Shown piece by piece: positions 27,644 through 64,000 of a stretch of 64,000 nt of DNA (position 1 is its first letter; every line of letters begins with the position of its first letter). Both the position numbers and the translations under genes were made by a program. The stretch covers positions 233,372-297,371 of the forward strand of contig CAZELA010000001.1 of the NCBI GenBank assembly GCA_964512835.1, in the 5' to 3' direction. The notes below the pieces were generated by a model. It was given only the letters and a program-made list of their open reading frames with translations. It did no database searches and was not told the origin of the DNA. The DNA comes from an uncultured Candidatus Saccharibacteria bacterium (lineage in GTDB: Bacteria; Patescibacteriota; Minisyncoccia; Phycocordibacterales; UBA2100).

Positions 27644-28168
27644 CTATTGGCAGGAGTCACGCAGATCGCCAGTTAGCCATGTTGCCGATTTTTTTGCCTC
27701 ATCAATATTTCTCAGCTGTAAATTATTTGGAACACCTGCTTGATGGCGCTTTTCTTCGAACTGAGTTTCAGTAAATGCCTGCATCGTTTGACCCGAGTGC
27801 GGGTCAATAACCCACCAGTAGGTTATCGATTCATCGGGGATGCAATTTGAACAATCCTCCATGCGTGGGTGCGGTTTCTCCAGCGGGTGTGTCTTCGCAA
27901 GAACATAGTCGTCATCCCACGCAATTTCAAATATGGATTCGGGAATGAACCCCCCAGCATCACCAATATCCGTGCAATTTACATATACAGCATATGCACT
28001 GCTCCTGTTCAGTTTGCAATGTGAATTTAACTGATATTCATAGTCTGCTAAACCGGGTCCAAAACCACATTTAAGAATAGTGCTGTAAAAAGAGAAACAA
28101 ATAAAAATCCACACGATGCTGGCGCCAATCCAAAAATACTTCGGATTCCGAACGATGGCTTTCAACAT
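27644..28168 (-). CDS. hypothetical membrane-anchored protein, low GC
   Basis: 174 aa, N-terminal TM, Cys-containing; about 45% GC versus 55-58% in flanks. Confidence 0.45.
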   Translation of the reverse strand: MLKAIVRNPKYFWIGASIVWIFICFSFYSTILKCGFGPGLADYEYQLNSHCKLNRSSAYAVYVNCTDIGDAGGFIPESIFEIAWDDDYVLAKTHPLEKPHPRMEDCSNCIPDESITYWWVIDPHSGQTMQAFTETQFEEKRHQAGVPNNLQLRNIDEAKKSATWLTGDLRDSCQ

Positions 28169-28196: not shown

Positions 28197-28390
28197 TTGT
28201 CTGTGCGCCCACTAGGATCCTCCCAAGCGCTCGTATTTTGCCGTCGCAAAATACTCCGCTCGGGCCTGGTTTTGCTATCCCATCTGCTGATGGGCCCCAC
28301 GCAAAACCTTTCGAATCCTGACGCTCGCTTCGCTAGCTGTGGGCGCACTTGTAAACAGAAAACGGCCCTAAGGCCGTTTTCTGATTCAAG
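28197..28390 (-). repeat. tRNA-Lys trailer element
   Basis: Terminator AAAACGGCCCTAAGGCCGTTTTC (28359-28382), inverted acceptor copy (28338-28349), hairpin GTATTTTGC-GACG-GCAAAATAC (28233-28254), direct copy GTGCGCCCAC.AGGAT (28203-28217). Confidence 0.6.
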
Positions 28391-28463
28391 TGCGCCCACC
28401 AGGATTCGAACCTGGGACCGTTCGCTTAAGAGGCGACTGCTCTACCAGCTGAGCTATGAGCGC
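28391..28463 (-). tRNA. tRNA-Lys (anticodon CTT), CCA not encoded
   Basis: Manual fold: acceptor GCGCTCA/TGGGCGC, anticodon loop CTCTTAA, T-arm CCAGGTTCGAATCCTGG. Confidence 0.8.
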
Positions 28464-58380: not shown

Positions 58381-59418
58381 ATGAAGAAAGAGTCTCATCA
58401 GACCTTGTATCGTCAGTATCGGCCGTCAGGGTTCGGAGAGGTTCGTGGTCAGGACCAGGTAACGCTTGTTCTCGAAAAAGCGATCAAAAACAAAAAGATC
58501 GGTCACGCCTACCTGTTCTGCGGCACGCGCGGCACGGGCAAAACGTCGGTGGCCCGTATTCTCGCACGAGAACTGGGCGTCTCGGACAAAGATCTGTACG
58601 AAATGGACGCCGCGTCAAACCGTGGTATCGATGACATCCGTGAGCTTCGCGAGGGAGTCTATGCGCTCCCGTTTGAATCACCGTACAAGTTCTACATCAT
58701 CGACGAAGCACACATGCTTACAAAAGAAGCGTGGAATGCTTTTCTAAAAACTCTCGAAGAGCCGCCGGCTCACGCGATCTTTGTTCTTGCAACCACGGAG
58801 CGGGATCGTGTGCCTGACACGATTCAGTCGCGTTGCGAAATCTACACATTTAAACAACCGTCACGGGACATGCTTGCCGATACGGTCGCCGATGTGGCGC
58901 AGAAAGAAGGGTATACGCTTGAGCGTGCTGCAGCGGAGTTGGTTGCGCTCCTTGCCGAAGGATCGTTTCGCGATGCGCTCTCTATCCTGCAAAAGGTGTT
59001 GTCAGTCGCTCAAGGAAAGAAGATCCAGATAGGTGACGTGGAAGACGTTTCCGGTGCGCCACGTGGTGAACTGATCCGTACATTACTCTCGGCTATCGCA
59101 AAAAAAGACGCCCAAGCGGCACTCTCGGTCGTCCGCACCGCAGAAAAAGACAACATGGATGCGAGAACGCTCGCAAAACTATTGATACATCGCTTGCGCG
59201 TGATATTGCTCATGCGGTACGCACCGGATTTGTCCGAGAGTCTGGCCGATGAGCTGACCGAAGCAGACCGCGAGATTGCGGGGGCGCTCACGAAAGAGCC
59301 GGGGATTAATTCTGATACATTGCGTTCGGTCCTCGATGCGTACGGAAAGATGGCGTATGCGGCGGTGCCGTTTTTACCGCTCGAACTTGCAATCATAGAC
59401 CTGTGCGCCGCGAAATAA
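58381..59418 (+). CDS. dnaX: DNA polymerase III subunit gamma/tau, short form (domains I-III)
   Basis: YLFCGTRGTGKTS, IIDEAHMLT, sensor SRC; aligns with the DnaX N-terminus. Confidence 0.75.
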   Translation: MKKESHQTLYRQYRPSGFGEVRGQDQVTLVLEKAIKNKKIGHAYLFCGTRGTGKTSVARILARELGVSDKDLYEMDAASNRGIDDIRELREGVYALPFESPYKFYIIDEAHMLTKEAWNAFLKTLEEPPAHAIFVLATTERDRVPDTIQSRCEIYTFKQPSRDMLADTVADVAQKEGYTLERAAAELVALLAEGSFRDALSILQKVLSVAQGKKIQIGDVEDVSGAPRGELIRTLLSAIAKKDAQAALSVVRTAEKDNMDARTLAKLLIHRLRVILLMRYAPDLSESLADELTEADREIAGALTKEPGINSDTLRSVLDAYGKMAYAAVPFLPLELAIIDLCAAK

Positions 59419-59469
59419 AAAAATCGGCCCCGCGTGACGGAGCCGAATGAGTTTCAAAGAGCCCGACGT

Positions 59470-59913
59470 TCAGTCGCCCTTTTTCTTTTCGGGGAGGATG
59501 AAGTCGATGAAGCGCAGACCGGCGCGTTCGGCCATCTCGAATGCCGATCCGATATGCGACGCGGTGAATTTACCGACGCCGACCGCAGTGGCTTTCGAAT
59601 GAGCCCACGAAATGAATTTCATGACCTCCCACAACGCCTTCGTCTGATGGAGTTCCGTCCAGCCATGTTTAGCGGATGATCGGAGGGTTTCGATATTGGC
59701 CAGCAGATCGACATCGTCGCTATTTTCGGGTGCGATGCCCGCATGCTGTAGTCCTTCGCGCACGGATTCGACGTGATCGAGAAACGTGTTGCGCAGGGAT
59801 GCGCTGGTGGCAGATGTTGTCCAGGACGCGACGAAGCCGATGATCTTTGCACCGATCACGGTTTTGATGACGAGCGGAACAATTGCGGCAAGGGCAATAA
59901 CGGGAGCGGGCAT
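59470..59913 (-). CDS. hypothetical N-terminal 2-TM / helical-domain protein
   Basis: MPAPVIALAAIVPLVIKTVIGAKIIGFVASW then a 110-aa helical region; divergent from the downstream operon. Confidence 0.45.
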   Translation of the reverse strand: MPAPVIALAAIVPLVIKTVIGAKIIGFVASWTTSATSASLRNTFLDHVESVREGLQHAGIAPENSDDVDLLANIETLRSSAKHGWTELHQTKALWEVMKFISWAHSKATAVGVGKFTASHIGSAFEMAERAGLRFIDFILPEKKKGD

Positions 59914-60143
59914 GCGCTATCCTTCCTTCAGGTTTGGCTTTTTTCACTATATACCTATGAAATATGAAAGAAAGTGCGTCAATAAAAATGCGAAAATATG
60001 GCTCAATGGAGCCACGGTGCAGACTTGACGTGTAATGTGAATTCTGGCATACTTGCGCCCGGCTACCGATGATCTTTCTGATCATTGAAAACAGCAAAGA
60101 GTTTACGACTACCACCCTCCAGCAAAGGACGAAGGAGAAGGCA

Positions 60144-61532
60144 ATGACCGAAGCGCAGACCCTGACCAAAGGTGGCCTCAATGAGGCCGCTGCATCGATC
60201 GCGCAGATGGATTCTGCGATGAGCAGTTTCCAGCGCACGACGCTGAACGACCTCCTGACGCAGCAGGAAACCCTGCTGAATCAACAGAAGGAAGTCGCTC
60301 AGCTCGACGACGCCAAGGAGCGTGCTGCGAAGACCGAGATCCTCAACGCGAATCTGGATTCGCTCCAGACCAAGATCGCCGCATACCGCGACGACACCGC
60401 TGAGCTGATCGCCGGCCTCGAGGCGCATTTCGAGAAGATCGGGCAATCGCTCGCCGGCTTGCAGAAGCCGACCGAGACCGACCTGAGCGTCGTGAAGCGT
60501 GCCGAGGAATTCCTCAAGAAGGTGCAGGACGACGGCGTCATCGCGCGCAAGCTGCTGACCGACGCGGTCACCGAAGCCCAGGGCGCGTTCTTCAACAGCG
60601 CCGGCAAGACGGCCGAGGCGAATCAAAAGCTCGCCGCGTTCGATCTCCAGCAGGAGGCCGACGTGAAGGCCGCCGGAATTGCCGTCGAGGAAGCGAAGGC
60701 TGAAGTCGAGCGGGCGCGCCGCAAGCGCATCCGCGAGGCGGACTTCGATGCGCAGTTCGATCGGTTCATCGCGATGGCGCAGCAGATTCAGAAGAATCTG
60801 CTCGACAACGTGATGGGCAGCGAAGTGCGGATGAAGGAGACTCAGAACGCCTTCATTGTATCGCTCAAGCAGAAGGAGTCGGCCGCGCTGAAGATGGCCG
60901 AAATCGCCGGCAAGATCCGCGAAAAGGAGAACGAGGTGATGAACCTCGAATCCGAACGCGGACAGACCGCCGACGAAGCGGCTCGCGCGACGGTCGACGT
61001 CAAGCTCGGTGTCGCCAATCAGGAGCTCGCTGACCTCAACGGTCAGAAACAGGAACTCCAGGTTGCGCACAACGCCGAAGAATCGGCGGCCAAGAAGCAC
61101 GAGACGATCCTGGCCACGCTGCAAGTTCAGCGTGAGAACCAGCGCTCGCACGCCGTGAAGCTCTCGATCGATGTGAAGGCGCGCTTCCAGCAGGCGCAGA
61201 ATATCGTCACGGTCATCAAGAACACGGCGCAGGAAGATGCGGCCTCGCGGCTGCATCAGGCCGGCTCGTCGATGGATCGCATGTCTCTCGAGATCGCGGC
61301 CCGCGCGCTCATTGCGAGCGAACGGGAGCGCCTCAACATGCTGCTCAATCACGAGAAGGACATGAAGGGCTTCGAAGAAGTGCGGTCGACGCTCGCCGAA
61401 GGGCGCGCGGACATCGCGGTCAGGGACGCCGAGATCATGGCGCGGATGAGGCAGGACTACGGCATCGATCCCTTGGGGTCGAGCTGGCTGCATCTCGCTG
61501 AACAGCACGTCGAAGAAAAGAAGGCGGCGTAA
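60144..61532 (+). CDS. long all-alpha coiled-coil protein (TelA/KlaB-like or PspA/ESCRT-III-like by composition only)
   Basis: 462 aa, Q/A/E/K-rich heptad-like sequence, no TM; RBS GGAGAAGG; GC clearly higher than the rest of the window; followed by hairpin GGGGCGCC...GGCGCCCC. Confidence 0.55.
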   Translation: MTEAQTLTKGGLNEAAASIAQMDSAMSSFQRTTLNDLLTQQETLLNQQKEVAQLDDAKERAAKTEILNANLDSLQTKIAAYRDDTAELIAGLEAHFEKIGQSLAGLQKPTETDLSVVKRAEEFLKKVQDDGVIARKLLTDAVTEAQGAFFNSAGKTAEANQKLAAFDLQQEADVKAAGIAVEEAKAEVERARRKRIREADFDAQFDRFIAMAQQIQKNLLDNVMGSEVRMKETQNAFIVSLKQKESAALKMAEIAGKIREKENEVMNLESERGQTADEAARATVDVKLGVANQELADLNGQKQELQVAHNAEESAAKKHETILATLQVQRENQRSHAVKLSIDVKARFQQAQNIVTVIKNTAQEDAASRLHQAGSSMDRMSLEIAARALIASERERLNMLLNHEKDMKGFEEVRSTLAEGRADIAVRDAEIMARMRQDYGIDPLGSSWLHLAEQHVEEKKAA

Positions 61533-61640
61533 GCCGTTGAACTGAACTGTTAGGTGGGGCGCCCGATTCAATCGCGGCGCCCCATTTCTCTTATGCAGAC
61601 AGGAATGGCCGATCGAATGAACACTCATGGGGAGAGCAGA

Positions 61641-62735
61641 ATGCAGCGACCTATCACCGGCGCGGGCAACACCGTCACGCTCATGAATAATGGCGACGGA
61701 CGATATGCCCGCTACTTTACCGAGCTCGACCGGGCGCTGCGCATGATTAATGCGTGGGCGCGCGGATACGCGAGCGGCACCATCGACGGATCGTGGCACG
61801 CGAACTATCTACGGGGACTCGCGGCTTGTTTTACCATGCTGCGCTCCCGTTACAGTTTTGAGTCATCTGATTCGTTCATGGTCGATCTTTCGCATTCGGG
61901 GTTTCCGCACAGCTTCATGCTGACGCGGATCGCTACCGATCGTGCGGAGGCGCTTGCCGAGCACTTCAAGAGCGAACCGCTTTCCGTCGGTGAATACAAA
62001 GTCGTCTTTCTTGACGACCTCTTCGCCACCGGACAAGTCAATCCCGCGCTCCTTAACAGGATCGCGAGTGCACAATATGCGGAAGTCGTCGCGAAAATGG
62101 ACGGGGCATTCGACCCGCGCTTTATGTGCGGAGAGCCTGTTTCGGTCAATGTCGCGAAGCGACGATATCGTTTGCAGTGGGCAGCGTTTGATCCGGCGGT
62201 TAATCTGCCGGTTCTGTGCGGGATGGCATTCGAACACGTCGGTGCCGATCTTACGAGGTCGATGCAGGCGTTGAAGTTGCTCCTCAAGCACGAAACGAGT
62301 GCCGGTACATCGATCGTCTCCCTCGCGGAGCGGATCGATTCCGGCAACAGCGATGTGAGACCGCTCGTGTTCACGCGGGTCACCGTGGGACCGATTCACT
62401 TGCCGGGCTTCACCGACATGACGGATACGGTCCGCGAACTCTCCGGCAACAGCGAAGAGGAGATGATGATCGAGCTTATTGCCGATCATACGCATGCGGT
62501 CAGCATCAGAAAGACAAGCGTACTCGCCGTGAAGTTGGGCGTGTCACCGGCTGAACAGCTCGTGTACGCGACCAAAGTGAATGACCCGCTCTGCTTCCAA
62601 CGCGGAGCGGAACAGGTTGAACGACTTGTGATCCTGCCGCATCGCATGCTGCAGGACATGGCGCCCACGACGCGATCGCATGTAAGCACCGACTACACAC
62701 TCATCCCGTATACCCAAGAAGGAGAAATCCAGTGA
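61641..62735 (+). CDS. hypothetical protein (no recognisable domain)
   Basis: RBS GGGGAGAG before the ATG at 61641; 364 aa; stop overlaps the next gene start (GTGA). Confidence 0.5.
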   Translation: MQRPITGAGNTVTLMNNGDGRYARYFTELDRALRMINAWARGYASGTIDGSWHANYLRGLAACFTMLRSRYSFESSDSFMVDLSHSGFPHSFMLTRIATDRAEALAEHFKSEPLSVGEYKVVFLDDLFATGQVNPALLNRIASAQYAEVVAKMDGAFDPRFMCGEPVSVNVAKRRYRLQWAAFDPAVNLPVLCGMAFEHVGADLTRSMQALKLLLKHETSAGTSIVSLAERIDSGNSDVRPLVFTRVTVGPIHLPGFTDMTDTVRELSGNSEEEMMIELIADHTHAVSIRKTSVLAVKLGVSPAEQLVYATKVNDPLCFQRGAEQVERLVILPHRMLQDMAPTTRSHVSTDYTLIPYTQEGEIQ

Positions 62736-64000
62736 ACGGCGGATCCAAAACGGAGATCAAGGCTGCTCAAATAGCGGAGCATCTGCGCAATGCAGATGCG
62801 CTCGTGACGAAAGTCGATTGGGCAGCCAAGAAAGCGCCACCTGCACCGGGCAATCTGTACCGCGAACGCTTGCTTGCAAGCGCCGCTGCAACCCCGAGTG
62901 CCTCGCTTATCGAAGCGATCAAGAACATCCGCAAGGACGGCTCTTCGATTGTCGACAAGGCCGAGCATCGCGTGCTCCACGACGTGCGCCGCGGTATCCA
63001 GATCGGATACGCGGTCGCCGAGGAGTACCGCCGCACGGTCGGCATCGAGAACGTGGGGGATCTCTCAAAAATTTCCCCTGAGCAGAAAGGTGTCATCCAG
63101 GAGAAGATGCGCACGGCGGCAGCACTTTCGCTGTACACGCTCGCGCGTTACGTCTCGGAAGGTCTCGCGGACGTCGGTGACGACCAGGCGCACAAGGAGC
63201 ACGTCGTGCTTCCCGAATGCGCGCTGGACAATCCGATCGCCGCGGCCAAATGCGCGCTCTACTACCTGAGCCTGAACCTGGCACATCCGAGCGTGAGCAA
63301 CGACAAGGCGCTCAACGCGACGGTGTATCTGTTCTTCCGTCAGGTCCTCGACGAGATCGAAGCCCGCAAGGCATCGTTCACGTACCTCGAATCGTTCCAG
63401 TCCATCGCGTTCGGCATCGAAGGCGAGGACTTCACGGTCGAGGGTCTCGAGCGTCACGACAGTCGCGCGGTCAGCGTCGAGTTCAACCGTCAGGAAATGG
63501 ACGGCATCGTCGGCAACGCCGATGCCAAACATGCCTCGACACGACTCGCGCGCCGGCTCGCGTGCTACAACATGCGCGAACAGGCGAACGTGTTCCAGAG
63601 GCTCGGCGGACTCATGCCGGTGTGGATGGGATACGGCAAACCCGGTACGGGCAAGTCGATGATCATCGCCGCGATAGCGACGCTGCTCGACGACCTCTGC
63701 AAGGCCCGGGGTATCCCGTTCCTGTTCCATCCGCTGCCGGACAACCTGATCGATTCGTATCAGGGAAACACGGCGCGGAACATGGTCAACTACATGAAAG
63801 CGTTCCTCGATCCCGGCCGCATCACATTCGGTGCGATCGACGACAGTGAGAACGTGTTTCAGGACCGTTCACGGCAGGGAGTGAGCGAGGGCGAGCGCGC
63901 CGCGATCGGCGTGTTCCTCCGCTATACCGAAGGTGCATACGCGATCACTCGCGGCAACGCCACCATCGGTGCGTTCACGAACATGCCGGAAGTGTTCGAC
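62732..64000 (+). CDS. AAA+ ATPase with about 290-aa N-terminal domain (3' end outside window)
   Basis: RBS AAGGAGA then GTG; Walker A MGYGKPGTGKSMIIAAIATLL about 300 aa in; Walker-B-like ITFGAIDDSE; open to the window end so absent from the ORF track. Confidence 0.6.
   Translation, partial: MNGGSKTEIKAAQIAEHLRNADALVTKVDWAAKKAPPAPGNLYRERLLASAAATPSASLIEAIKNIRKDGSSIVDKAEHRVLHDVRRGIQIGYAVAEEYRRTVGIENVGDLSKISPEQKGVIQEKMRTAAALSLYTLARYVSEGLADVGDDQAHKEHVVLPECALDNPIAAAKCALYYLSLNLAHPSVSNDKALNATVYLFFRQVLDEIEARKASFTYLESFQSIAFGIEGEDFTVEGLERHDSRAVSVEFNRQEMDGIVGNADAKHASTRLARRLACYNMREQANVFQRLGGLMPVWMGYGKPGTGKSMIIAAIATLLDDLCKARGIPFLFHPLPDNLIDSYQGNTARNMVNYMKAFLDPGRITFGAIDDSENVFQDRSRQGVSEGERAAIGVFLRYTEGAYAITRGNATIGAFTNMPEVFD

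Follow-up and report, generated by a model that had tools for sequence, protein, structure and literature searches.

At the end of the analysed stretch of 64,000 nt (the window) lies a conserved chromosomal cluster of six genes, g1 to g6, in two transcription units; the window contains its first half. The plus-strand operon described in an earlier note on this DNA, in which the genes for a coiled-coil protein and an orphan are followed by that of an AAA+ protein, translationally coupled and with an N-domain of roughly 300 aa, is real, and its genes lie almost where they had been placed, but the operon runs past the end of the window. The contig extension that the note had proposed came from two metagenome contigs, L004 and L001, which match the window with 0 mismatches in 3932 bases and add the full ATPase, g4, g5, g6 and g7. 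On these contigs g1-g4 are followed by a terminator and then by g5-g6, with strong terminator-like hairpins 3' of both g4 and g6. The first unit is the core: the g1 coiled coil, the g2 orphan alpha/beta protein, the g3 classical AAA ATPase and the g4 DUF6638 protein. The second is an exchangeable membrane module, represented at this locus by g5 and g6. Since hydropathy predicts two transmembrane (TM) segments in g5, three in g6 and none in g1-g4, the core is probably cytoplasmic, and the membrane connection suggested earlier is plausible because the integral membrane proteins g5 and g6 lie downstream.

Table 1. Features of the locus, with coordinates in the window; g4-g6 lie on the extended contigs.
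Feature	Position	Strand	Size	Description
Terminator-like hairpin	59424..59446	-	10-bp stem	Stem followed by T run; 3' of g0, between dnaX and g0
g0	59470..59913	-	147 aa	Small membrane protein, N-terminal hydrophobic hairpin and helical domain; divergent from g1
Candidate sigma-70-like promoter	60025..60053	+		TTGACG-17-CATACT with extended-10 TG; 5' of g1
Perfect palindrome	60069..60085	.		ATGATC-N5-GATCAT; directly 3' of promoter-like site
g1	60144..61532	+	462 aa	All-helical coiled coil; AAGGAG 5' of start; first core gene
G+C-rich hairpin	about 61552..61587	+		Between g1 and g2; U-rich stretch next
g2	61593..62735	+	364-380 aa	Orphan; alternative start 61641
g3	62732..64000	+	642 aa, first 423 in window	Classical AAA ATPase, unique N-domain of roughly 290 aa
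g4			420 aa	DUF6638
g5				Small membrane protein
g6				3 TM segments and domain of roughly 430 aa

The left boundary of the unit is the hairpin behind g0. The small minus-strand protein proposed there corresponds to an ORF whose residues 3-31, near the N-terminus, are hydrophobic (hydropathy), and it has no match in Pfam, PADLOC or NCBIfam. In two related CPR loci, L021 (E 7e-7) and L104 (E 1.6e-9), a homologue likewise adjoins the cluster in divergent orientation, though the flanks differ; of 84 loci searched, the remaining 83 yielded none. Judged by these comparisons g0 is a lineage-specific neighbour, restricted to Saccharibacteria-like CPR loci and outside the pan-phylum core, and it may be an add-on membrane partner specific to that lineage. 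The sigma-70-like site between g0 and g1 is a single consensus match, no commoner than in shuffled sequence. The inverted repeat reported beside it is present and perfect, but its spacer is 5 rather than 6 nt and it ends at 60085. It occurs once in the window, is not conserved in L021 or L104 (both compared), and by our own estimate a 6+6 palindrome with free spacer is not improbable within a region of 230 nt; we regard it as a candidate operator of unproven significance.

For g1, the ORF and its helical character were borne out, and a ribosome-binding site precedes the start. Gene callers placed the start further upstream, at the ATG at 60069 (487 aa); in relatives (458-473 aa) the alignment begins at residue 1 of the 462-aa protein. 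The AlphaFold model is almost entirely helical and contains a long hairpin (H201-274/H278-370), the confident part of which spans about residues 230-330, while the tertiary model as a whole is poor (pTM 0.31). A C-terminal motif, Y-G-I-D, is conserved in the family alignment, with Y439, G440 and D442 invariant. The gene lies 5' of g2-g3 in 81 of 84 loci, and relatives extend to Sinorhizobium (E 5e-24) and Vibrio (E 2.4e-27). The GC hairpin noted behind g1 was also found: its folding energy is -29.4 kcal/mol (z = -4.2), a stability that none of 200 shuffled sequences reaches. It may act as an attenuator or mRNA-stabilizing element, which would set g1 in excess over g2-g4.

The second gene begins either at 61593, the JGI call (380 aa), or at 61641, as noted earlier (364 aa); relatives have 360-363 aa, and residues 1-24 of the longer form are disordered. 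It combines an N-terminal helical bundle with a beta-rich domain, and its decent AlphaFold model matches no solved fold. Pfam, PADLOC, PHROG and PDB searches were likewise empty, in agreement with the description of g2 as a protein lacking recognized motifs. A partnership of g1 and g2 is suggested by their genes, which are always adjacent and which in one metagenome-assembled genome (L037) form a single ORF of 768 aa, though this fusion could be a sequencing error. An apparent fusion of g1 with DUF2333 (P0147) resembles an internal deletion and does not count as evidence of interaction.

The third gene is, as had been proposed, a truncated AAA+ gene coupled to g2: it starts with GTG, overlaps the g2 stop codon in GTGA and is preceded by AGGAG. 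Walker A (GKPGTGKS) occupies residues 302-309, followed by the pore loop S-Y-Q-G (342-345) and Walker B (D370-D371-x-E373); the window edge cuts the AAA domain at residue 423, a few residues past sensor-1 (T416/N417). Pfam AAA matches the truncated protein at E = 8e-6 and the full-length protein at 6e-9. Against the PDB, the AAA-domain profile matches VAT/Cdc48 D1 (4e-10), Rpt4 (1e-8), Vps4 (4e-7) and Msp1 (9e-7), as well as Afg2 and katanin. In the alignment with VAT, both Walker motifs, sensor-1 and the Tyr and Gly of the pore loop all line up; two arginines invariant in the family, R429 and R433, fall where that alignment ends or immediately beyond it. The N-domain has neither a PDB match nor an AAA-like match.

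Beyond the window, g4 is a clear member of DUF6638 (PF20343; E 6.5e-35), a family that its S. meliloti orthologue matches at 8e-76. The small multi-TM protein g5 ends in a conserved basic tail, KSARxRLKDKG, behind a variable and probably disordered linker. In g6 three N-terminal TM helices precede a highly conserved domain (57% mean column identity) with many invariant polar and aromatic residues. The g5 tail is predicted to be cytoplasmic and the g6 domain extracytoplasmic, by our manual reading of hydropathy and the positive-inside rule rather than by a dedicated predictor. In Yonathbacteria, Moraniibacteria, Bdellovibrionota, close CPR relatives and S. meliloti, g5-g6 are swapped for small TM proteins and DUF2333 (PF10095). 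Both DUF names denote uncharacterized families only: the literature searched held no mention of DUF6638 or PF20343, and one passing mention of DUF2333. Apart from the DUF6638 match of g4, none of g1, g2, g4 and g6 had a match in Pfam, PADLOC, PHROG or PDB sequences, and homology ties no non-ATPase component to a function. Nor did profile searches, Pfam, PADLOC and NCBIfam among them, assign any ORF to a named housekeeping complex, as the first reading of the locus had it.

The cluster is recurrent across many bacterial phyla and uncharacterized. Relatives occur in at least 554 of 599 pattern hits among species-representative genomes, and at least 554 species genomes keep the g1-g4 core colinear, among them Flavobacteriaceae, CPR, Deinococcota, Verrucomicrobiota, Bdellovibrionota, rhizobia (Sinorhizobium, Shinella, Rhizobium) and Vibrio. 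All six genes are colinear on one strand in 67 of 84 loci, and g1-g4 are present wherever the contig allows.

Our preferred reading, to which we give a probability of about 0.45, is that the cluster encodes a dedicated, membrane-associated remodelling machine of the AAA+ type that acts on the cell envelope, built from a core and an exchangeable membrane module. In such a machine g3, which retains Walker A, sensor-1, the arginine fingers and the aromatic residue of the pore loop, would be a hexameric substrate-threading motor; its private N-domain would recognize a dedicated client, and ATP would be used to assemble, disassemble or reset that client. Our guess at the likeliest client is a g1 coiled-coil assembly, probably bound to g2. 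The g5 tail, if cytoplasmic as the positive-inside rule predicts, would be a second candidate handle for g3, and work done in the cytoplasm might be coupled through g5 and g6 to the g6 domain, placed outside the cytoplasm by the same rule.

A related alternative, which we consider possible but rather unlikely, makes g3 an extraction, quality-control or assembly chaperone on the models of Msp1/ATAD1, FtsH and Cdc48. It would pull on the g5 cytoplasmic tail (or on g6 or DUF2333) so that an envelope protein is inserted, extracted or recycled, with g1, g2 and g4 as adaptors and not substrates. The conserved basic tail on its linker suits this idea, as do the presence of Msp1 and Cdc48 among the AAA domains closest to g3 and a core that stays constant while the membrane module is exchanged. 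However, the cluster has no protease partner or domain, the proposed substrates are no more than candidates, and in L024, L061 and Vibrio the stretch examined shows g1-g3 or g1-g4 alone, so the membrane module is either not obligatory or encoded elsewhere.

Base composition raises the question of whether the segment is simply foreign DNA that entered lately, whatever it encodes. The GC excess reported earlier is genuine but smaller than stated, 59% against a background of 55.2% rather than 63-65%: GC is 0.590 for 59470-64000 and 0.603 for 60144-64000, and the mean of the other 4.5-kb windows is 0.552 ± 0.011, the highest of them reaching 0.573. GC3 is 0.83 in g1, 0.69 in g2 and 0.75-0.78 in g3, against 0.624 ± 0.054 for the ORFs of the window, and it remains raised through g4-g6 (0.72-0.83 across g1 and g3-g6). 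The flanks also differ between the window and its closest genomic relative, L021, and the cross-phylum distribution implies transfers at some time. The step from GC-rich to horizontally acquired is nevertheless not supported. In 14 other loci the cluster has the GC of its host, with GC3 ranging from 0.20 to 0.91, and composition therefore does not show recent transfer; in 13 of these 14, across phyla, GC3 is slightly above that of the flanks, which suggests a codon-usage property intrinsic to the cluster. We found no tRNA gene or Rfam-family RNA on L001 or L004, and no integrase or transposase Pfam domain in the called genes of the extended contigs. Moreover, g0 and the cluster are arranged alike in CPR relatives with a g3 of only 58-63% identity, so any acquisition predates that divergence. 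A recently acquired island is accordingly unlikely.

We are more doubtful still that the cluster is an anti-phage or anti-mobile-element defence system, with the AAA+ protein and the coiled coil as sensors of infection and the membrane proteins as abortive-infection effectors. Its patchy distribution across phyla, the deviant GC3 of the window copy, the Vibrio copies on accessory replicons of roughly 0.9 Mb with near-identical proteins in different species, and the IS element and endonuclease gene inserted in the S. meliloti Ak57 copy could all be read in this way, and there are weak IetA/IteA matches over the g3 P-loop region. The phage-defence proposal nonetheless fares poorly. The IetA match is limited to about 50 residues around Walker A (E 4e-5), none of g0, g1, g2, g4, g5 and g6 is matched by a PADLOC model, and domain searches revealed no effector, whether nuclease, protease, TIR, Sir2 or another. 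The phage and viral collections searched contain no copy of the cluster, and no known defence genes adjoin it in the loci inspected. Its neighbourhood is conserved across Flavobacteriaceae genera, with an ABC-F gene upstream in 44 loci, the S. meliloti DUF6638 protein occurs on 513 contigs, and even small CPR genomes have kept the cluster.

Very improbable is a true ESCRT-III/Vps4 or PspA/Vipp1-type system, with g1 as a divergent ESCRT-III-superfamily polymer and g3 as its Vps4-like disassemblase: in its favour are the long hairpins of the all-helical g1, the single classical AAA cassette of g3 with Vps4 among its matches, and the membrane proteins encoded in the cluster. The proposed TelA/KlaB, PspA or ESCRT-III likeness of g1 is not supported, as 0 of 27 relatives match Snf7, PspA_IM30 or TelA at E ≤ 1, hhalign against E. 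coli PspA gives a probability of 0.3%, and the protein is about twice as long as ESCRT-III. Nor is the Vps4 likeness of g3, whose N-domain has no MIT, Vps4_C or PDB match and which VAT/Cdc48 and Rpt4 match better than Vps4 does.

Among known systems, IetAS and other ATPase defence systems in PADLOC resemble the cluster through the weak ATPase match; the cluster differs in having no IetS protease and other components without counterpart, in its conserved context and in its absence from phages. PspA/Vipp1 with PspF/PspBC shares a coiled coil, an AAA+ protein, small membrane proteins and a divergent promoter region. PspF, however, is an NtrC-type enhancer-binding AAA+ whereas g3 is a classical AAA, and the cluster lacks PspA similarity in g1 and any PspB or PspC domain. 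Vps4/CdvC with ESCRT-III/CdvB follows the same logic, a helical-hairpin polymer-type protein beside a single-cassette AAA with membrane partners, but g3 and g1 (about 460 aa) lack the corresponding domains and profile matches, and g2, g4, g5 and g6 are extra conserved components with no ESCRT counterpart. Vps4-like ATPases also appear to be absent from bacteria (2025 review, PMC7619361). Msp1/ATAD1 is likewise a single-cassette classical AAA and acts on membrane-protein tails, to which the probably cytoplasmic g5 tail offers a parallel; Msp1 is membrane-anchored, whereas g3 has no TM segment, and the partner genes are unrelated. By sequence, the AAA domain of g3 is best matched (E 4e-10 to 1e-8) by Cdc48/VAT/p97, Afg2 and proteasomal Rpt/PAN, of the classical AAA clade, with which it shares both Walker motifs, sensor-1 and the aromatic and glycine of pore loop 1; the invariant g3 arginines sit at the second region of homology. 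Identity to this group is only borderline, and g3 differs in its single cassette, in an N-domain with no detectable relative and in a Walker B of the form DD-x-E instead of DE-x-D, so that its competence for hydrolysis is assumed. The shared motifs imply, at the level of sequence, a hexameric threading motor, and one that has what Cdc48/VAT, Afg2 and Rpt/PAN lack, dedicated partners encoded in its own operon.

Extending the window past its right end recovered the part of the gene cluster that the window cuts off. JGI and Logan contigs found by exact-protein look-up match the window with 0 mismatches over 3932 overlapping bases, and they supply the full-length AAA+ ATPase g3 (642 aa) together with g4, g5 and g6, as the earlier note had hoped of a longer contig. 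The four genes which that note described inside the window, a small membrane protein (g0), a coiled-coil protein (g1), an orphan protein (g2) and g3, are all borne out by the ORF listing and translation, and so is its translational coupling of g2 to g3, where the GTG start of g3 at 62732 overlaps the g2 stop as GTGA. For g1, gene callers prefer an upstream ATG at 60069, which would give 487 aa. The cluster is flanked by dnaX on one side and by ykuD/IMPDH on the other; specifically, g6 (557 aa) starts 4 bases before the g5 stop and is followed by g7, an unrelated gene of 167 aa, and then by genes for a YkuD L,D-transpeptidase and for IMPDH. The neighbouring DnaX (window 58381-59418) has only 345 aa, with the clamp-loader ATPase domain, lid and domain III and without the tau-specific C-terminal extension; taken with the closest relatives of g1-g3, it points to a Saccharibacteria-like CPR/Patescibacteria genome.

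Genes and features of the cluster. Positions are those of the window except for g4 and g5, which lie beyond it on L004, a metagenome contig identical to the window and reaching further downstream.
Feature	Position	Strand	Length	Remarks
g0	59470-59913	minus	147 aa	ORF listing and translation
Palindrome	60069-60085			ATGATC-N5-GATCAT
g1	60144-61532	plus	462 aa	AAGGAG ribosome-binding site
g2	61593 or 61641 to 62735	plus	380 or 364 aa	two possible starts
g3	62732 to window end	plus	423 codons within window	GTG start
g4	L004 5766-7028		420 aa	Pfam DUF6638
g5	L004 7177-7827		216 aa	

Strong terminator-like hairpins 3' of g4 and 3' of g6 make the cluster look like two operons, g1-g4 and g5-g6. A further G+C-rich hairpin, noticed earlier, does lie between g1 and g2 (-29.4 kcal/mol, z = -4.2). 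The inverted repeat upstream of g1 is a perfect palindrome as first described, except that its spacer is N5 rather than N6 and its end 60085 rather than 60087; it lies just 3' of the sole sigma-70-like match (60025-60053), and a role as a conserved operator finds no support at related loci, where its sequence is not kept. Antisense to g1 runs an ORF of 578 aa (60063-61799, minus strand), which a longest-ORF heuristic even chooses. It is an artefact of the very GC3-rich g1 frame, because homologues exist for the plus-strand frame only.

The best characterized member of the cluster is g3. Its Walker A box, placed by the earlier note about 300 aa from the N-terminus, is GKPGTGKS at residues 302-309; 25 relatives share it without change, and VAT, a Cdc48-type classical AAA protein, has GPPGTGKT at the aligned position. 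Walker B (A-I-D370-D371-S-E373) aligns with VAT IDEID, with D at the position of the catalytic E and, two residues further on, an invariant E (D-D-x-E versus D-E-x-D). Pore-loop-1, S-Y343-Q344-G345, in which Q and G are invariant, aligns with VAT K-Y-Y-G; sensor-1 (T416/N417) also aligns with VAT, and both it and the SRH arginines R429 and R433 are invariant. The two arginines lie beyond the window end, were read from L004 and the sequence P0001, and fall at or just past the end of the VAT alignment, the stretch that carries the arginine fingers in classical AAA proteins. The protein matches PF00004 with E 6.3e-9 (36.8 bits, cut-off 21.2), and its AAA-domain profile finds VAT/Cdc48 D1 (4e-10), Rpt4 (1e-8), Vps4 (4e-7) and Msp1 (9e-7) in the PDB, along with Afg2, TRIP13 and katanin. 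From the motif set and the PDB matches, g3 is thus a bona fide classical AAA ATPase without a specific subfamily. The earlier suggestion of a Vps4-like ATPase does not hold up: VAT/Cdc48, Rpt4 and Afg2 outscore Vps4 (4e-10 to 2e-8 versus 4e-7), and no MIT or Vps4_C domain matches g3 at E <= 1 in Pfam. The N-domain of about 290 aa has no match in Pfam, and its profile none in the PDB at E <= 10; hhalign rejected the idea that it is a degenerate second AAA domain.

The partner proteins are harder to place. AlphaFold predicts g1 to be almost wholly helical, with a confident long hairpin and a poor global model (pLDDT 67, pTM 0.31), and gives a decent model of g2 (pLDDT 78, pTM 0.78), a helical bundle plus a beta-rich domain for which no solved fold relative was found. 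The underlying alignments are shallow for both proteins (11 and 13 sequences) because homologues were gathered with concatenated g1+g2 queries, whose coiled-coil words swamped the candidates, so that only 13 CPR g1 relatives were returned. The guesses that g1 is TelA/KlaB-like or PspA/ESCRT-III-like both find no support in profile searches: none of the 27 members of the g1 family, g1 and 26 relatives, matches TelA (PF05816), Snf7 (PF03357) or PspA_IM30 (PF04012) at E <= 1, and hhalign gives the g1 profile a probability of 0.3% against E. coli PspA. The g2 family is small and uniform, with 252 clusters at 50% identity among 1.84 billion proteins, and its listed members (176-415 aa) show no sign of an added domain. 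The g4 protein matches DUF6638 (PF20343) over 394 of 439 profile positions (E 6.5e-35, 121 bits, cut-off 27). No further Pfam domain was found in g4 or any in g6; profile searches of g1, g2, g4, g6 and the g3 N-domain against PDB sequences gave nothing significant; PHROGs yielded nothing beyond generic AAA matches, and NCBIfam no match. Paralogy among the cluster proteins was considered and rejected, none being detected.

By hydropathy g5 has two TM segments, g6 three and g1-g4 none. Our reading of the positive-inside rule predicts that the g5 tail is cytoplasmic and the domain of about 430 aa in g6 extracytoplasmic. The g5 C-terminus carries a conserved basic motif, KSARxRLKDKG[LM] in Flavobacteriaceae and SAADIIARHKDGRAI in the window organism (alignment A9), preceded by a variable acidic or proline-rich linker, and this arrangement looks like a short linear docking motif. 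The g6 protein is strongly conserved (57% mean column identity). The idea that g6 and DUF2333 might be divergent homologues was also rejected, since no relationship between them could be detected.

The cluster is widespread. Among CPR bacteria, Flavobacteriaceae and Verrucomicrobiota there are full-length g3 relatives with 38-73% identity. A profile-based scan in which each species was represented by one genome gave at least 554 loci encoding a g3 relative, and the cluster is colinear in at least 554 species from at least seven phyla. We fetched 84 loci, extracted their ORFs and searched these iteratively with the window's proteins: 67 carry g1-g2-g3-g4-g5-g6 colinear on a single strand, and the rest are cut by contig ends or have no g5-g6. 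The same search returned one g0 relative, in the closest genome, and no relatives of g7. In annotated records, tblastn found g3 relatives in Sinorhizobium, Shinella, Rhizobium and Vibrio (28-30% identity over 81-98% of g3), and beside these lie homologues of g1 (E 5e-24 and 2.4e-27), g2 (about 1e-50) and g4 (DUF6638 down to E 8e-76). Database annotations of the cluster proteins are solely 'hypothetical protein', 'AAA family ATPase' or 'DUF6638 family protein'. CPR genomes are generally small, and they retain the core g1-g4. Colinearity on this scale and retention in CPR genomes therefore suggest that the cluster does a real cellular job and is not junk.

While the core g1-g2-g3(-g4) is constant, the membrane module varies. 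The g5+g6 module is found in Flavobacteriaceae, Pelagicoccus, the closest Saccharibacteria MAG and the window organism; one or two small multi-TM proteins with DUF2333 take its place in Yonathbacteria, Moraniibacteria, a Pseudobdellovibrionaceae MAG and two CPR relatives with g3 53-58% identical; in S. meliloti a DUF2333 gene lies directly 3' of g4; and the Trueperaceae and Vibrio loci have no membrane module within the stretch examined. The genes g1, g2 and g4 co-occur obligatorily with g3, and the membrane module is exchangeable. Homologues of g0 lie divergent and upstream of g1 at two related CPR loci (E 7e-7 and 1.6e-9) with flanks, and even a membrane module, unlike those of the window; g0 is therefore a linked, lineage-specific addition, conserved in a CPR sublineage.

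Two loci join cluster genes. In the Pseudobdellovibrionaceae MAG (locus L037, 176-2482) g1 and g2 form a single ORF of 768 aa. A genuine fusion would imply that the two proteins interact physically; the alternative is that a stop codon was lost in assembly. On a JGI contig of 23.8 kb, the 732-aa protein P0147 combines g1 residues 3-376 with the part of DUF2333 that starts at profile position 69. We rejected this as a Rosetta-stone link between g1 and DUF2333, since what it unites are truncated halves of the two end genes, at the junction expected from in-frame loss of everything between them in a DUF2333-type cluster; P0147 is most simply read as an internal deletion or chimera.

Other genes intervene at some loci. 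In 30 flavobacterial loci a NUDIX hydrolase gene (NudK_N + NUDIX) sits between g3 and g4, e.g., L019 10041-10622. In Pseudomonas fluorescens a DUF2333 gene adjoins genes for a NUDIX hydrolase and an N-acetylmuramoyl-L-alanine amidase (PMC5256989). Together with the YkuD gene 3' of the cluster here, these contexts may hint at a link to the cell envelope or to nucleotide sugars. In S. meliloti Ak57 (CP090106.1; L101 11085-12830) an endonuclease-domain gene and an ISRm16 transposase gene lie between g3 and g4. This record is labelled 'plasmid pSymB' yet is 3.7 Mb and thus chromosome-sized, and the 'plasmid' matches from rhizobia are therefore probably chromosomal. The Vibrio core proteins are at least 90% identical, with one cluster per gene, many labelled 'MULTISPECIES', common to V. 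parahaemolyticus, V. vulnificus, V. cholerae, V. fluvialis and V. metschnikovii; the four-gene core lies on replicons of about 0.88-0.94 Mb that also carry mfd, a pattern that suggests a large replicon shared between Vibrio species.

The earlier note took the base composition of this region as a sign of horizontal acquisition. The last 4.5 kb is indeed rich in GC, at 0.590 compared with 0.552 +/- 0.011 (maximum 0.573) for all other 4.5-kb windows, which falls short of the 63-65% originally given. GC3 is 0.83 in g1, 0.69 in g2 and 0.78 in the in-window part of g3 (0.75 full length), against a mean of 0.624 +/- 0.054 for the window's ORFs; it stays elevated through g4-g6 (0.72-0.80) and drops to 0.63 at ykuD. 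However, in 14 loci from other phyla cluster GC follows the host (GC3 0.20 to 0.91). Cluster GC3 is slightly above that of the flanking genes in 13 of the 14, whatever the host GC (e.g., 0.91 versus 0.76 in Trueperaceae), with flank ORFs picked greedily, a choice that could inflate the excess in GC-rich genomes. The window's signal is the strongest of the set. On L004 and L001, another contig identical to the window, we found no tRNA gene or Rfam RNA, and no integrase or transposase Pfam domain among the called genes; phage and viral collections held no family member. Recent transfer explains the composition less well than a codon bias intrinsic to the cluster, to which an old acquisition may have been added, and the island claim is not supported. 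Of the two observations that the earlier note had paired as evidence against its own reading, native GC in relatives is largely what we see, and the loss of the 2-TM partner is not, g0 being kept. Elsewhere in the window a single ORF is clearly low in GC (27644-28168; GC 0.44 versus 0.55, GC3 0.44 versus 0.62). It adjoins a tRNA-Lys gene (28390-28463), the surrounding 2-kb window (GC 0.50) is the profile minimum, and the region may be a small foreign insertion.

Classical AAA ATPases with operon-encoded dedicated partners, such as Vps4, NSF, katanin, Msp1 and Cdc48 with its adaptors, usually drive specific remodelling. The cluster is built around a classical AAA ATPase whose threading apparatus is intact, and the reading we prefer, with a probability of about 45%, is a membrane-associated AAA+ remodelling machine. 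Hexamers of g3 would engage a dedicated client through the N-domain and remodel it with ATP, the client most likely being a coiled-coil assembly of g1 (and g2) or the g5 tail. Remodelling would take place at the inner membrane face and be coupled to the extracytoplasmic domain of g6 or DUF2333, and the hairpin after g1 may raise its stoichiometry over g2-g4.

In a variant of this scheme, which we consider unlikely, the ATPase acts in extraction or as an assembly chaperone and the membrane proteins are its substrates. An anti-phage defence system, also raised by the earlier note, has a still smaller chance of being correct. It would fit the match of g3 to IetA in PADLOC-DB v2 and the accessory-like replicons of the Vibrio copies, but the match is confined to about 50 residues around the P-loop, no PADLOC system was matched, g0, g1, g2, g4, g5, g6 and g7 have no match in that database at E <= 1, the genes around the cluster are conserved in Flavobacteriaceae, and in S. 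meliloti, with 513 contigs, it is widespread. True ESCRT-III/Vps4 homology is very improbable in view of the profile searches with g1 and g3.

The gene families are already in databases and the sequences themselves are not new. Membership tests failed for Vps4, ESCRT-III/PspA, TelA and every PADLOC system, and left 'classical AAA' and 'DUF6638' as the sole family assignments; of the six conserved proteins, five lack any homologue whose function is known, and g2 is the only one modelled confidently. According to a 2025 review, bacteria appear to lack Vps4-like regulators of coiled-coil membrane polymers (PMC7619361). A comparative-genomics paper on the PSP system describes other PspA-AAA+ contexts and not the present cluster. 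The literature searched makes no mention of DUF6638 or PF20343 and holds nothing relevant on PF10095 or Q92N41, and in the sources searched we did not find the six-gene, two-module cluster, its breadth or the lack of a fold relative for g2 described. On the preferred reading the cluster encodes an AAA+ remodelling machine with novel dedicated partners, and there is a fair chance that the machine as a whole is new in kind. The cluster itself is solidly real and broadly conserved, and with the same core present in Sinorhizobium meliloti and Vibrio, its genetics is feasible without culturing a CPR organism.

In the way it works, such a machine most resembles known pairings of a classical AAA ATPase with a client or adaptor of its own, namely ESCRT-III for Vps4, the adaptors of Cdc48, and tail-anchored proteins for Msp1. 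A bolder reading, possible but rather doubtful, is a hitherto unrecognised kind of envelope-spanning machine, kept from CPR bacteria to rhizobia and vibrios and composed of a classical AAA motor with a private N-domain, a g1 coiled-coil scaffold, the orphan-fold g2 and DUF6638, in which ATP-driven work would be passed through interchangeable g5/g6 or DUF2333 modules to an extracytoplasmic domain. Such a machine would be the counterpart of ESCRT-III/Vps4, or of FtsEX-type transmembrane coupling, in logic and not in ancestry.
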